Shown here: positions 9,929 through 18,770 of the stretch, one piece after another
Layout: each line of letters starts with the position of its first letter
How positions within the stretch are numbered: the first letter of the stretch is position 1
NCBI GenBank assembly: GCA_965224185.1
Contig: OZ245042.1
Span: 804,134 to 868,133 of the forward strand
Source: Rhodobiaceae bacterium
Lineage (GTDB): Bacteria; Pseudomonadota; Alphaproteobacteria; Rhizobiales; G965224185
Length of the DNA: 64,000 nucleotides
Direction: 5' to 3'
Position numbers and translations under genes: made by a program
The notes under the pieces: model-generated
What the model was told of the DNA's origin: nothing
The model's database searches: none
What the model saw: only the letters and a program-made list of their open reading frames with translations

Positions 9929-10072
9929 TGCACGGTTTAGATTAACCCGTGCGGCATAACACGTTGAAATACAGCCCCTTCCCTTCATCCAACTCAATTC
10001 GGACACGGACCGTGATCCCCTACTCATCCGTCACCACCCGATTCATTCGGGTGGTCCATCGGCGGCCCGGCT

Positions 10073-10299
10073 TGTGGCTCGGTCCGTGGCAAAATCCCCA
10101 CCCTATCAACCCGCTAAACCGCCAATGGATAACCCGCATGAAGCGGGTTATGACGATGGAGAGAGTGTCGGCGTGGCGGCGATTGGCCGAGCCGGACAGC
10201 ACTGCGCTTTCGCGGGAATTGTCTGTTTGATTTGAGATCCCGTTTTTTCGCACCACACATCAATGCGGCGCACCGGATTAGCGCATTGTCCGCCCGGCT
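10073..10299. mobile_element. MITE-like 227-bp insertion flanked by 8-bp direct repeat gcccggct
   Basis: Copy 2 lacks this segment and reads ggcggcccggct|acgcaccgggg. Copy 1 has gcccggct at 10065-10072 and again at 10292-10299, flanking the extra DNA. Confidence 0.55.
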
Positions 10300-10374
10300 A
10301 CGCACCGGGGCATCGCCTGTCGTTGGCGCCGCCGCGGGTCTTGGTAACTACGTATAATTCCTTATATAACCGGT

Positions 10375-10666
10375 ATGATCCTGCATCCCGCCTCTCCGCT
10401 CCGCCGGCATTTACATTTGACCGGCGCCCGTTATGGTAGCCGCCGGACCGGCAGCCGTCGGTCCTCGGGGTCTGATAGCCCCACCAACAGCGTTTGGCAT
10501 CAGACGCATTGATGCCTCCTCGCACCTTTCGGTCGGGGAGGCAATGGCGTATGTCCAGGGCCCCGGCCTAAAGGTCATTGCGGCCGACTGTTGGCGGTCT
10601 ATCAGCTCCCCGGCTACCAGGGTAATCCCTGGTGGCCGTTTTCTTTTCCGGCCACGGGTGCACGCC
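10375..10666 (+). ncRNA. Candidate cis-regulatory leader RNA (riboswitch/attenuator-like) of the small TM-protein gene
   Basis: - Multiple conserved stem-loops: ggaccg/cggtcc, gcatca/tgatgc, cctcc/ggagg, and long-range ctgatag/ctatcag pairing.
- An 11-bp terminal hairpin ggctaccaggg-taat-ccctggtggcc followed by GTTTTCTTTTCC lies directly before the ATG at 10667.
- A compensatory loop change in copy 2 conserves the hairpin. Confidence 0.4.
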
Positions 10667-10981
10667 ATGGAGACCGTTGATTTCTGGACGCAATTTTTCA
10701 ACGCCTATCTGGCCTCGCCAGACTGGATCAAGGGGCTTGCCGTCATTCTCGCCTTCGCCGCGCCGGCAACGGTGCTGATCGGCCTCGCCTGGCTTCTCCT
10801 TGGCCGGCGCGTCCGAGACACGGCCGGGGATCGGTTGCCGGACCCGCCCGATCCGGCCGACCCCCTGGTCTTCTCCGTCCACCGCGCTCCGGACGGCACC
10901 TTGCGGCGCTACTTGCATCCAGGCAATGGCAGCCCGGTGGAACTCCTGACCGGTGACGCCGGCCCGGTATCAGATGACTGA
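10667..10981 (+). CDS. Small single-TM protein (about 104 aa), conserved in both module copies
   Basis: METVDFWTQFFNAYLASPDWIKGLAVILAFAAPATVLIGLAWLLLG... The copy-2 ORF differs mostly by conservative substitutions with no frameshifts over about 85 codons, which indicates purifying selection. Confidence 0.5.
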   Translation: METVDFWTQFFNAYLASPDWIKGLAVILAFAAPATVLIGLAWLLLGRRVRDTAGDRLPDPPDPADPLVFSVHRAPDGTLRRYLHPGNGSPVELLTGDAGPVSDD

Positions 10982-11157
10982 TAGGGAGATCCCGGGGGGC
11001 GGTCTATATGCCCTTCCGATCGGATGCGACACGATGCAGGCAATGTCGGCAGACGGCAAAAGCCGGTCAAGATGGTTCCTATTGAGGACAACATGTTCTA
11101 GGCTGCGGCAAATCATAATCTGTCCGGCGGACGCGTCCCGACCGCCGGTGCCAATTT

Positions 11158-16287: not shown

Positions 16288-16369
16288 AATTCCCGCGAAA
16301 GCGGGAATCCGGGGCCAATTACAGAAGCCTATTTTTGTAACCCTGGATTCCCGCTTTCGCGGGAATGAC
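16288..16369. repeat. REP family 1 doublet
   Basis: caattcccgcgaaagcgggaatccggggcc...ccctggattcccgctttcgcgggaatgac. Confidence 0.8.
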
Positions 16370-16582
16370 TGCACGGTTTAGATTAGCCCGTGCGGCATAA
16401 CACATTGAAATACGGCCCCTTCTTTGCATCCAACTCAATTTGGACACGGACCGTAATCCCCCACTCATCCGTCACCACCCGATTCATTCGGGTGGTCCAT
16501 CGGCGGCCCGGCTACGCACCGGGGCATCGCCTGTCGTTGGCGCCGGGGCGGGTCTTGGTAACTACGTATATTTTCTTATATA

Positions 16583-18105
16583 GTCCCCTGTGAAGAATTC
16601 CCATGCTGCTGCCTGGATTGGTGTTTTTCACCGGTTGCAGTATTCGGTTTTGCAAGGATTGTTGGTTTTGACGGTCGGTTTCTTGCGTTTTTGGGTTCGT
16701 TTTTGTGAGCGAATATGATTCCCTGGTCGTTGTGATTTTGGGGGATTTCGATGCGCCCGAAGAAGCCGAAGACAACCGACCACGGCGACCTTTTCAAAGC
16801 CCGTCTCGATCAGATCATCAACATGAAGCACGAACTGGTTCTGCTGGCTGACCGGGTCGATTGGGACTGGATCGACGAAGAACTGGCGCCGTTTTTCTCC
16901 GACTGGGGCCGGCCGGGGGAACCGGTCCGGTTCATGATCGGCATGTTCCTGTTGAAGGCCACCTACGGCTTGTCGGATGAACAAGTCTGGGAACGCTGGG
17001 TGCACGATCCGTATTTTCAGTACTTTACCGGCGAGGCATTCTTCCAGCATGAACTCAGGCACGAGCGCTCAGGCATGAGCCATTGGCGCAAGCGCATCGG
17101 TGACAAGCTGGATATTCTGCTCGCCGAGACGTTGCGCATTGCCCACGATGTCGGCGCTCTGAAGAAGAGCGACCTGGCGCGGGTGACCGTTGACACCACC
17201 GTGCAGCCGAAGGCAATCACCTTCCCGACCGACGCCAAGCTCATGCTGGTGGCGATCGAGCAGTTGAACCGGCTTGCCAAGGCGCATGGGGTCGAGGTGC
17301 GCCAGTCCTATCTTCGGGTCGCCAAAAAGGCCGCAATCATGGCCGGACGCTATGCCCATGCCAAGCAGTTCAAGCGCCACAACCGGCAGCTCAAGTTCCT
17401 GCGCACCCGGCTCGGGCGGCTGATCCGCGATATCCGTCGCAAAACCGAAGCGCACGAGGATCTGAGAGCCGTCTTCGCCTTGCCGCTGTCAAAGGCCGAC
17501 CAGATCCGAGGACAGAAGCAGCGCCAGCGGGGCTGGAAGCTCTATTCATGGCATGCGCCGGAGACCGAGTGCATCGGCAAAGGCAAGGCGCACAAGCCGT
17601 ACGAATTTGGCTGCAAGGTCTCAATCACCACCACCAACAAGCGCTGCAAGGGCGGCCAGTTCATCCTTCATGCCAAGGCGTTCCATGGAAACCCATATGA
17701 CGGCCATACCTTGGGGAATGTGATCGAGGAAACGGAGTTGCTGACCGGCAGGGAAATCGAACGGGTCTACGTCGATAAAGGGTATCGAGGCCACGACGCA
17801 CCGCATCCGCGCCGGGTCTTCAGATCCGGACAAAAACGCGGCGTCCATGGCCAGATCAAACGCGAACTCAGACGGCGATCCGCTGTCGAGGCCGTCATTG
17901 GCCATTGCAAGACCGACGGCCATCTGGGACGAAACTACTTGCATGGCCGTCTCGGGGATCGCATCAATGCCACAATGAGCGCCGTCGGATACAACATCCG
18001 ACGCATCCTCAGGTGGTTGAGGATACTCTTAAGCAAAACCCTCAAAACAATCCTGGGAGCAATCGCCGGTCAATCAGCCCTCAAAGCCGCTTCTTAACAT
18101 TCGAC
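16583..18105 (+). mobile_element. IS5/IS1182-family insertion sequence with TATA(TA) target duplication and imperfect terminal inverted repeats
   Basis: Relative to copy 1, the flanks read cttatata|IS|...ctatata accggg. The ends gtcccctgtgaagaa and (reverse complement) gtcgaatgttaagaa form an imperfect IR. It encodes a 448-aa DDE transposase. Confidence 0.75.
16751..18097 (+). CDS. IS5-family DDE transposase
   Basis: N-terminal InsH-like domain (LVLLADRVDWDWIDEELAPFFSDWGRPGEPVRFMIGMFLLKATYGLSDEQVWERWVHDPYFQYFTGE) and a C-terminal DDE region (VYVDKGYRGHD...). Confidence 0.85.
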   Translation: MRPKKPKTTDHGDLFKARLDQIINMKHELVLLADRVDWDWIDEELAPFFSDWGRPGEPVRFMIGMFLLKATYGLSDEQVWERWVHDPYFQYFTGEAFFQHELRHERSGMSHWRKRIGDKLDILLAETLRIAHDVGALKKSDLARVTVDTTVQPKAITFPTDAKLMLVAIEQLNRLAKAHGVEVRQSYLRVAKKAAIMAGRYAHAKQFKRHNRQLKFLRTRLGRLIRDIRRKTEAHEDLRAVFALPLSKADQIRGQKQRQRGWKLYSWHAPETECIGKGKAHKPYEFGCKVSITTTNKRCKGGQFILHAKAFHGNPYDGHTLGNVIEETELLTGREIERVYVDKGYRGHDAPHPRRVFRSGQKRGVHGQIKRELRRRSAVEAVIGHCKTDGHLGRNYLHGRLGDRINATMSAVGYNIRRILRWLRILLSKTLKTILGAIAGQSALKAAS

Positions 18106-18437
18106 TATATAACCGGGATGATCCTGCATCCCGCCTCTCCGCTCCGCCGGCATTTACATTTGACCGGCGCCGGCTATGGTAGCCGCCGGACCGGCAGCCG
18201 TCGGTCCTCGGGGTCTGATAGCCCCACCAACAGCGTTTGGCATCAGACGCATTGATGCCTCCTCGCACCTTTCGGTCGGGGAGGCAATGGCGTATGTCCA
18301 GGGCCCCGGCCTAAAGGTCATTGCGGCCGACTGTTGGCGGTCTATCAGCTCCCCGGCTACCAGGGTTAAGCCCTGGTGGCCGTTTTCTTTTCCGGCCACG
18401 GGAGCGCGCCATGGAGACCGCCGATTTCTAGACATCA

Positions 18438-18770
18438 TTGTTCAACGCCTATCTCGCCTCGCCGGACTGGATCAAGGGGCTTGCCGTCATTCTCGCCTTC
18501 GCCGCGCCGTCGGCGGTGCTGATGGGTCTCGCCTGGCTCGCCTTCGGCCAAAGGCGCGGCGACAAAACGGCCGGAGACCGCTTAACCGACCCGCCCGATC
18601 CGGCCTGCCCCCTGGTCTATTCCGTCCAACGCGCTCCGGACGGCACCCTGCGCCGGTTCATGCATCCAGGCAATGGCAGCCCGGTGGAACTCCCGGCTGC
18701 GGAAGGCGTTGCTGCACTGGAACGGCCGGCGGACGGAGGGCGGCGCGGCGTGGCGGATGCGGCTGGGTAG
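18438..18770 (+). CDS. Copy-2 paralog of the small single-TM protein (possible TTG start; the upstream ATG frame has acquired a stop)
   Basis: MFNAYLASPDWIKGLAVILAFAAPSAVLMGLAWLAFGQRRGD... aligns with the 10667-10981 product. The METADF* frame is stopped by tag at the position corresponding to copy 1's tgg. Confidence 0.4.
   Translation: MFNAYLASPDWIKGLAVILAFAAPSAVLMGLAWLAFGQRRGDKTAGDRLTDPPDPACPLVYSVQRAPDGTLRRFMHPGNGSPVELPAAEGVAALERPADGGRRGVADAAG

Follow-up and report, generated by a model that had tools for sequence, protein, structure and literature searches.

A large family of triple-pseudoknotted leader RNAs, duplicated in a Rhodobiaceae genome, and its possible role as a helix-exchange switch

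The genome of a Rhodobiaceae bacterium (GenBank assembly GCA_965224185.1, contig OZ245042.1) raises the question of what is controlled by a structured leader RNA that lies, in two copies, ahead of a gene for a small membrane protein. The stretch of DNA analysed here, referred to as the window, comprises 64,000 nucleotides (nt; contig positions 804,134–868,133, forward strand) and contains a ~1-kb module twice, each copy carrying the leader and an open reading frame (ORF) for a mini-protein with a single transmembrane (TM) helix. An original prediction, made from the sequence alone, interpreted the leader as a riboswitch or attenuator of a class that it did not recognise. Our analysis reveals that the leader RNA is a member of a large family, present in well over a hundred bacterial species and absent from Rfam. 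A cis-regulatory RNA of unrecognised class is the best-supported reading, and we see a slightly better than even chance that the RNA is a cis-acting helix-exchange switch controlling the downstream gene. The original prediction is essentially right once its boundaries are corrected.

A search of the window with Rfam 15 at gathering thresholds identifies two tRNAs only, with no family reaching threshold in the leader, in agreement with the view that it belongs to no recognised aptamer class. BLASTN of copy 1 against plasmids yields matches over only ~100 nt (10516–10623) in intergenic regions without annotation from Methylobacterium, Methylorubrum, Paracoccus, Agrobacterium, and Rhizobium, mostly on conjugative plasmids and each just upstream of a co-oriented small gene. 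From two conserved blocks we drew an exact 29-nt search pattern, GGTCGGGGAG-N8-GYATGTCCAGG, which matches at least 120 stretches among contigs representing one genome per species. The taxa bearing the pattern include many alphaproteobacterial orders, Acidobacteriota (Granulicella, Terriglobus, and Terracidiphilus), and Verrucomicrobiota (Luteolibacter, Prosthecobacter, Akkermansiaceae, and Chthoniobacteraceae); the pattern is also present in 17 IMG/VR viral contigs, though BLASTN of a phage collection returned no match. R1, a covariance model derived from 118 distinct sequences, scores 140 places at 27–168 bits in the fetched loci and finds no copy in the window beyond the two. Searching eight of the plasmid loci together against Rfam gave nothing at E ≤ 0.1, a weak signal for the family sRNA-Xcc1 appearing only with short stretches, and a literature search with conserved sequence strings and keywords found no description of the motif, which is not proof that none exists.

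The RNA can also occur in clusters: in several genomes and plasmids, two or three copies lie within a few kilobases of one another, each before a different gene. These multi-copy loci are L002 (3925–4098 and 4950–5126), L008 (1893–2064 and 2914–3089), L027 (4231–4410, 4639–4819, and 7533–7671), L040 (5974–6149 and 7060–7239), and L142 (two pattern matches); tandem copies of sRNA-Xcc1 in a Xylella genomic island are comparable (PMC12189769).

Covariation supports a fold with six helices and three pseudoknots (Table 1). For the whole fold, covariation was counted on a MAFFT alignment made without reference to a structure: pairing is present in 87.5% of cells, versus 72.2% after shuffling and 40–51% with slid partners; changes on both sides occur at 44 of 59 pairs; and the covariation score is 0.436, versus 0.162 shuffled and 0.07–0.09 slid. 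For the three pseudoknots, counts were made on a model-based alignment whose model left them out, giving 86.4% of cells paired (62.5% shuffled, 33–48% slid) and a covariation score of 0.529 (0.143 shuffled). The covariation predicted for the leader is therefore found, in homologues from other genomes. In particular, the long-range ctgatag/ctatcag pairing noticed originally is real: it is pseudoknot PKa, it covaries in more than 100 homologues, and both it and PKb are highly variable in sequence yet always complementary. P5 contains one G-U pair that is invariant (118/118) and many further G-U pairs are present, indicating that the sense strand is the folded strand. P2 shows double changes of its own, indicating a local hairpin.

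About 35 nucleotides are invariant across the three phyla. No variation is seen in P7. The search pattern prescribed its 5′ strand, whereas its 3′ strand lay outside the pattern and is nonetheless (nearly) invariant. Divergent members (L040:7060–7239, L049, and L027:7533–7671) show that "invariant" segments can vary. Three other interpretations of the fold and its surroundings were rejected: a long-range GGGG:CCCC pairing in place of local P2, given the compensatory changes in P2; a CsrA-binding site, since the P2-loop GGA is not a conserved feature; and a single-stranded-DNA promoter of the plasmid leading-region type, since the sense strand folds and a normal −35/−10 pair precedes it.

The boundaries of the RNA differ from those first proposed. 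The leader as originally delimited (~290 nt, 10375–10666) is structured, with a fold energy of −132.6 kcal/mol (z = −5.1 versus shuffled sequence), but only 10440–10616 and the hairpin that follows are kept elsewhere. Conservation in other genomes, which spans ~180 nt in the aligned plasmid loci, ends just upstream of a −10-like box, and homologues have a −35/−10 pair at matching distance, with the −10 box ending 8–12 nt before P1 and the −35 box ~17 nt further up. On this basis, 10375–10439 would be promoter DNA, and the RNA most likely starts at ~10444, a few nt before P1. The first of the hairpins originally described accordingly fall outside the RNA.

The RNA is tied to the genes that follow it. 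In most loci it lies 15–100 nt upstream of a co-oriented ORF, and it is not specific to the mini-protein. The genes that it precedes encode TraM, RovC_DNA-bd (formerly DUF2285), XRE and AraC regulators, and DUF5818; BamE-like and other lipoproteins, outer-membrane beta-barrels, pseudopilins, and several unnamed small membrane proteins; and MHYT-GGDEF-EAL, PAS-GGDEF, and PAS-MCP proteins. Recurring themes are the envelope, signalling, and mobile-element regulators, with no metabolic pathway or functionally coherent set among the downstream genes. The RNA lies upstream of traM in loci L056, L101, and L124 and upstream of RovC/DUF2285-type genes in loci L007, L029, L061, L067, L072, L093, L104, L105, and L111. 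Its repeated position before the TraM anti-activator and before DUF2285/RovC-type DNA-binding proteins suggests that it may be part of transfer control in plasmids and integrative and conjugative elements (ICEs).

The mini-protein itself belongs to a real, unnamed family. Searching with the single sequence matched only the two window copies, but the orphan-gene reading was rejected: the result reflects a word-index limit of the search, and a profile built from locus-derived homologues matches 198 proteins, all "hypothetical", none with a Pfam domain, and many from Microvirga, with several per genome. Family features are an N-terminal YxFWxDFFxxYQSxSDW helix, one TM helix, and a C-terminal LxYxVxxxxxGxxxxYxH hairpin; an AlphaFold2 model predicts a helix at residues 3–16, a TM helix at 19–53, and a beta-hairpin at 68–84 (mean predicted local distance difference test score, pLDDT, 76; predicted template modelling score, pTM, 0.34). 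Homologues of the mini-protein lie downstream of the RNA in eight other loci, all with elements of subtype B (see below), and in the loci fetched via the mini-protein alone the RNA is found 43–92 nt upstream in 4/4.

In the window, both copies of the mini-protein gene look impaired. Copy 1 has a degenerate GGGTG ribosome-binding site in place of the GGGAG of homologues, and copy 2 has a premature stop at codon 7 (TGG to TAG, 18429–18431), which indicates that the "110-codon" ORF described for this copy is a downstream TTG restart. The ratio of nonsynonymous to synonymous divergence (dN/dS) between the ORF copies is 0.33–0.42, with a synonymous divergence (dS) of ~0.35–0.41. Directly downstream of the copy 1 gene is a 165-codon multi-TM ORF (11158–11655, +) with no Pfam match, which could be co-transcribed with it.

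Elements of the family fall into two subtypes at the 3′ end. Subtype A (n = 91) is found mostly in plasmid or ICE-like settings, and in 81/91 of its elements a conserved hairpin, GCGG-GGGCGYA-CCGC, sits inside a variable stem. The loop of this hairpin is complementary to the loop of P1 and covaries with it (ACGC/GGGCG in 67 elements, ACGU/GGACG in 8, and ACGU/GGGCG, with a G-U pair, in 2), and there appears to be a kissing contact between the 5′-most and 3′-most hairpin loops. Examples of the subtype-A hairpin are L001 ~4130–4160 and L004 ~3135–3160; it is often overlapped by a spurious TTG ORF call ("MRGRTADT..."). Subtype B (n = 56), which includes the window, has a hairpin directly after P7 in 43/56 elements and a ribosome-binding site straight after, with no hairpin, in 13/56; a terminator-type T-rich tail follows the hairpin in 19/56 elements of subtype B, versus 0/91 of subtype A.

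The hairpin of the window, P8, is real, with a 12-bp stem and a U-tract, where the original prediction described an 11-bp terminator stem immediately before the ATG; between the end of the U-tract and the ATG (10667) there are 18 nt. The overlap of P7 with P8 is only 1–2 nt, and computed folds contain no convincing antiterminator, such that classical terminator/antiterminator attenuation is not evident. Of the proposed riboswitch or attenuator architecture, what stands is a covarying, co-oriented RNA of an uncatalogued class with a terminator and alternative pairings; the signal is stronger for a masked ribosome-binding site than for attenuation.

Specifically, CUCCCC, which forms part of the 3′ strand of P7, is complementary to GGGGAG-type ribosome-binding sites, and such sites are enriched downstream of the RNA. 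A GGGGAG, GGGAG, or GGGGA together with a start codon is present within 170 nt in 70/119 elements, versus 7% of control windows, and GGGGAG is present downstream of 19% of elements, versus 1.9% of ribosome-binding sites in 527 control genes. Thirteen compact members consist, at this end, of CUCCCCG, a short loop, GGGGAG, 5–8 nt, and ATG, with no hairpin between. In copy 2 of the window, the minimum-energy fold pairs GCUCCC with the ribosome-binding-site sequence GGGAGC around P8.

We infer from these complementarities the following switch. Each copy would be a self-contained expression unit: a sigma-70 promoter, the ~180-nt triple-pseudoknotted RNA, a hairpin, a ribosome-binding site, and the small membrane-protein gene. 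The invariant segment GGUCGGGGAG has two possible partners: a pyrimidine run that immediately precedes it (P4ext, a local hairpin that would form first in transcription) and the downstream CUCCCCG(RYY), with which it forms P7; the two pairings are mutually exclusive. With P7 formed, and reinforced by two pseudoknots holding the 5′ and 3′ halves together, CUCCCC would be locked away and a GGGAG-type ribosome-binding site would be free (ON); with P4ext winning, CUCCCC would be free to mask the ribosome-binding site (OFF). PKa abuts P7 and could stack on it, in which case the pseudoknots would favour the ON state. Candidate triggers are ligands, proteins, ions, and temperature. In the window variant, P8 would add a transcriptional stop, and a discrete ~205-nt RNA is probably made too; P8 more likely sets the ratio of this RNA to the read-through mRNA.

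The two pairings compete for the same GGUCGGGGAG, with family median energies of −14 to −15 kcal/mol (P4ext hairpin) and approximately −20.7 kcal/mol (P7 duplex). The minimum-energy fold of the window leader chooses the P4ext pairing, as an 11-bp hairpin of CCUCCUCGCACC-UUUC-GGUCGGGGAGG. In the window, the nested minimum-energy fold, at −126 kcal/mol, is close in energy to the state with P7 plus pseudoknots, at approximately −119 kcal/mol as a crude sum.

Several observations weigh against a helix-exchange switch. A metabolite riboswitch would not typically precede genes as diverse in function as those found here. Because P7 and its partners do not vary, they provide no covariation, and the search pattern had fixed the 5′ strand of P7. 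The terminator overlaps the sensor by too few nucleotides for regulated termination to be evident. Finally, the identity of the RNA cores beside impaired ORFs fits an RNA with its own function; the identity could stem from very strong constraint on the RNA, or it may simply be the product of recent gene conversion.

The last point bears on the main rival explanation, a small RNA (sRNA) with its own function. According to this explanation, the RNA is an independent trans-acting sRNA gene that uses CUCCCC (or CCUCCUC) as an anti-Shine-Dalgarno seed on other mRNAs, and the ORF is a neighbour or read-through passenger. It would account for an RNA that has its own promoter and, in the window, its own terminator, for the hairpin and T-tail in 19 subtype-B members, and for RNA cores that are identical (177/177) while the ORFs have diverged and look damaged. 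It is also in line with the recurrent top weak Rfam match across the 3′ domain, to sRNA-Xcc1, a mapped 88-nt sRNA described as trans-acting (PMC2996969); an anti-Shine-Dalgarno seed on other mRNAs has been proposed for that sRNA. However, more than 100 loci retain the RNA directly upstream of a co-oriented ORF, as do 4/4 protein-retrieved loci; many members have no terminator between RNA and ORF; the best complement to CUCCCC is the local ribosome-binding site; and the candidate seed is buried in P7 in the folded state. We consider an sRNA of this kind possible but unlikely.

The resemblance to sRNA-Xcc1 (RF02221) deserves separate comment. It is the best permissive Rfam match in the region (27.8 bits over 10532–10622, versus a 53-bit gathering threshold) and the top sub-threshold match in 3/3 members tested (27.8 bits for the window, 24.6 for L020, and 21.7 for L034). 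The alignment (model positions 1–87) overlays P7, P5, and P6, of which P5 and P6 are supported by covariation and P7 is invariant. The two RNAs have in common a three-way junction consisting of an outer stem, a long hairpin with an internal loop, and a short hairpin with a 6–7-nt loop, followed by a U-rich joiner before the closing strand of the 3′ domain, and the mapped 5′ end of sRNA-Xcc1 corresponds to the start of this domain in the leader RNA (PMC2996969). They also share a mobile-element setting, sometimes in several copies, directly upstream of co-oriented, varied small genes: sRNA-Xcc1 lies upstream of symE in Xanthomonas integron cassettes and of an ORF6N-domain gene in APSE phages (bioRxiv 10.1101/2025.06.18.660453; bioRxiv 10.1101/2020.03.17.996009), and a true member on a Kingella potus plasmid (L129, 56.4 bits) lies upstream of a KilA-N-domain gene. 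In contrast, the internal-loop nucleotides differ (GYAUGUCC.../CUAAAGG in the leader RNA and AAUACAAUACC.../GGGGAAU in sRNA-Xcc1), the Rfam model has no counterpart of P1–P4 or the pseudoknots, and sRNA-Xcc1 occurs in beta- and gammaproteobacteria, whereas the leader RNA occurs in Alphaproteobacteria, Acidobacteriota, and Verrucomicrobiota.

Reciprocal detection failed: the full-length model R1 does not match the Kingella sRNA-Xcc1, and a model of the 3′ domain (R2) finds it in the right position (2455–2536) with only 10 bits (E = 0.48). Together with the sub-threshold scores, this indicates that the window RNA falls outside RF02221; the two may be distantly related. A BLAST search using the consensus of sRNA-Xcc1 returned the Kingella sequence as its one usable true member, too few to judge the 5′ domain. 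In that locus (L129, 2290–2540), ACAAAG, complementary to the sRNA-Xcc1 loop CUUUGU, lies ~120 nt upstream and is abutted by UCAAU, complementary to the joiner AUUGA; these could be counterparts of PKb and PKa, respectively, or could be due to chance.

An improbable alternative is a constitutive 5′ element that does not switch and that travels with horizontally transferred genes as an all-purpose expression cassette. Such an element could cap the mRNA with a stabilising or exonuclease-resistant structure, enhance translation, or act as a processive antitermination RNA of the put or EAR type. The extremely diverse downstream genes, often on plasmids, ICE-like regions, and viral contigs, and the invariable position of the RNA at the extreme 5′ end of the transcript, behind its own promoter, would fit such a cassette, and a terminator directly after the RNA would suit the antitermination version, which would read through P8 and later terminators. 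The alternative leaves unexplained why P4ext and P7 are mutually exclusive and why downstream ribosome-binding sites are biased toward the complement of CUCCCC, and stabilisers rarely need ~35 invariant nucleotides across three phyla.

We think it very unlikely that the RNA is a self-cleaving ribozyme or a substrate for RNase P or RNase E, with cleavage separating the 5′ domain from the sRNA-Xcc1-like 3′ domain. In this form the RNA would resemble the c4 antisense RNA of phage P1 acting on its own transcript, with the two variable pseudoknots as specificity loops. c4 of phages P1 and P7 and the IsrK-type immunity RNAs are encoded at the 5′ end of the transcript that they control, and they share with the leader RNA two short variable complementary contacts, a mobile-element setting, and a position upstream of regulators. 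The Rfam families C4 and isrK have been reported next to sRNA-Xcc1 in Xylella (PMC12189769). In favour of a processed RNA are the complex pseudoknotted fold with invariant junction nucleotides, the mobile-element contexts with varied neighbours, the unfailing complementarity of PKa and PKb, and the coincidence of the sRNA-Xcc1 5′ end with a domain boundary (PMC2996969). However, the leader RNA matches no ribozyme, C4, or IsrK model in Rfam, covarying variable helices are ordinary in structured RNAs, and the two contacts, unlike those of c4 and IsrK, are most simply intramolecular pseudoknots in one compact fold.

That the leader is no RNA element at all, being part of a 182-codon ORF (10433–10981) that crosses it in frame with the mini-protein in copy 1, or being a DNA-level repeat or recombination site, is barely credible and already contradicted: the P8 loop of copy 2 is 2 nt longer and breaks the frame, homologues differ by non-triplet indels and compensatory pair changes, and the strand-specific G-U pairs would be A-C mismatches on the other strand. 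Translation of the leader as a longer ORF, raised as a possibility at the outset, is thus not supported, and the 182-codon ORF, whose frame is not kept in copy 2, is best regarded as an artefact of high G+C.

Returning to the helix-exchange switch, its closest known counterparts would be riboswitches of the SAM-II and preQ1-II type, which are pseudoknotted and act on translation by hiding or freeing the Shine-Dalgarno sequence. Common features are a pseudoknotted 5′ leader with a conserved core and a helix that competes for a ribosome-binding-site-related sequence, as well as the occurrence of members with a terminator instead of, or besides, the competing helix. Unlike these riboswitches, to which it has no sequence or Rfam-model similarity, the leader RNA is much larger, contains three pseudoknots, would use a four-segment relay (pyrimidine run, GGUCGGGGAG, CUCCCC, and ribosome-binding site), and precedes genes without a metabolic theme. 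In gene order (promoter, non-coding RNA, terminator, small ORF), the module also resembles type III toxin-antitoxin systems such as ToxIN, in which the antitoxin RNA consists of short tandem repeats. Unlike ToxIN, each locus has a single 177-nt structured unit with no tandem repeat array, and the downstream proteins, which vary by locus and are in this case a TM mini-protein without a Pfam match, bear no relation to ToxN-like nucleases.

Table 1. Features of the two module copies in the window (positions refer to the 64,000-nt stretch)
Feature	Position	Strand	Basis or remarks
Conserved RNA core, copy 1	10440–10616	+	Covariance model R1, 138.7 bits, E = 3.6e-35
Conserved RNA core, copy 2	18183–18359	+	R1, 138.7 bits; 177/177 identical to copy 1
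Sigma-70-type promoter, copy 1, TTTACA-16-TATGGT	10410–10437	+	Promoter scan; predicted, homologue-supported
Promoter, copy 2, hexamers as in copy 1	18153–18180	+	Predicted from alignment, offset +7743 from copy 1
P1	10445–10464	+	RNA core, copy 1
P2	10467–10482	+	RNA core, copy 1
PKa, P2 loop CUGAUAG with CUAUCAG	10472–10478 with 10599–10605	+	Pseudoknot
PKb, CCAACAG with P6 loop CUGUUGG	10484–10490 with 10588–10594	+	Pseudoknot
P3, small H-type pseudoknot	10491–10516	+	
P4 (P4ext, 10515–10541)	within 10515–10541	+	
P5, highly conserved internal loop GYAUGUCCAGG / CUAAAGG	10541–10581	+	
P6	10583–10598	+	
P7, CGGGGAG with CUCCCCG	10534–10540 with 10606–10612	+	
CUCCCCG, proposed anti-Shine-Dalgarno strand	10606–10612	+	(Nearly) invariant in 118 sequences; outside search pattern
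P8 terminator-like hairpin, copy 1	10611–10648	+	12-bp stem 10611–10638, loop TAAT, then TTTTCTTTTC; terminator scan
P8 terminator-like hairpin, copy 2	18354–18393	+	Stem as in copy 1, loop TTAAGC, U-tract
Degenerate ribosome-binding site, copy 1, GGGTG	10656–10660	+	Read from sequence; homologues GGGAG
Ribosome-binding site, copy 2, GGGAG	18400–18404	+	Read from sequence
Mini-protein gene, copy 1, 104 amino acids	10667–10981	+	N-terminal helix, one TM helix, C-terminal beta-hairpin
Mini-protein gene, copy 2	18411–18770	+	ATG 18411; TAG 18429–18431; possible TTG restart 18438
Upstream duplicated segment, copy 1	9929–10064	+	93% identity to copy 2; adjoins REP-like palindrome 9901–9925
Copy 1-only 227-bp stretch	10065–10291	+	Holds REP-like palindrome 10205–10227; pairwise alignment, self-BLAST
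Upstream duplicated segment, copy 2, left of insertion sequence	16370–16582	+	Alignment, self-BLAST
IS5-family insertion sequence	16583–18110	+	~1.5 kb; transposase 16751–18097; Pfam DUF772 and DDE_Tnp_1

Pairwise alignment and self-BLAST bear out the duplication of the module and show how its copies are laid out. Copy 1 spans ~9918–10946, and copy 2 consists of 16359–16582 and 18106–18693, having been split by an IS5-family element at TATATA, ~75 nt upstream of the predicted copy-2 transcription start; the copy-2 promoter is intact, to the right of the element. Identity between the copies climbs toward the leader: 93% for 9918–10064 versus 16359–16505, 95% for 10292–10368 versus 16506–16582, 97% for 10375–10439 and its counterpart, and 100% for the RNA core, within the alignment of 10369–10946 to 18111–18693. 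The identical cores mean that the two window copies provide no covariation and that all covariation evidence comes from other genomes; the different P8 loop of copy 2 (ttaagc for taat), once taken for compensatory conservation, is just a loop change. The upstream segment 9929–10064 shows no conservation in other genomes, homologues being unconserved upstream of the −10 box, and the 227-bp stretch present only in copy 1 could have been gained by that copy or lost from copy 2.

A palindrome resembling repetitive extragenic palindromic (REP) elements (TTCCCGCGAAAGCGGGAAT and variants) recurs across the window, often as inverted pairs, at 9901–9925, 10205–10227, 13024–13109, 16279–16390, 25686–25775, 26738–26767, 30511–30597, and 63357–63489. 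Both module copies start right beside such a palindrome, which suggests that the repeats may have mediated the duplication. Between the copies, an IS110-family element (15134–16093, −; DEDD_Tnp_IS110 and Transposase_20) and the IS5-family element lie side by side. Patches of low G+C (0.445 at 12000–12599 and 0.39 at 19200–19799, with surroundings of ~0.6) coincide with a 402-codon ORF (11772–12980, +), read from sequence as a putative membrane-anchored GGDEF protein, and with a gene for a leucine-rich-repeat protein (18878–19765, −). The DNA between and beside the module copies looks like a mosaic of acquired DNA. The two tRNA genes of the window are divergent (1153–1224, −, and 1417–1490, +).

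A wider reading, which we put forward tentatively and hold to be rather doubtful as a whole, is that the family constitutes a new riboswitch-like sensor class, with a triple pseudoknot and, in the plasmid and ICE subtype, an additional kissing-loop contact, that gates genes for the envelope, for cyclic di-GMP (c-di-GMP) signalling and chemotaxis, and for conjugation (TraM, RovC/DUF2285, and XRE) via a four-segment anti-Shine-Dalgarno relay. The class would be widespread in Alphaproteobacteria, Acidobacteriota, and Verrucomicrobiota and in their plasmids, ICEs, and prophages, and sRNA-Xcc1 may be a reduced relative.

If the RNA is a sensor, a large and structurally elaborate orphan class would be added to the bacterial RNA regulators, in phyla for which few riboswitch classes are known, and an RNA switch would be tied to regulators of plasmid and ICE transfer (traM, DUF2285/RovC, and XRE) and to envelope and c-di-GMP genes. 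The RNA, with ~180 nt, more than 100 diverse sequences, and three covarying pseudoknots, is a well-defined target for structure work and for the search for a ligand or partner. Labels can now be given to hundreds of "empty" intergenic regions and to a so far nameless family of at least 198 mini-proteins, and the RNA family may explain the nature of the poorly understood sRNA-Xcc1 family.

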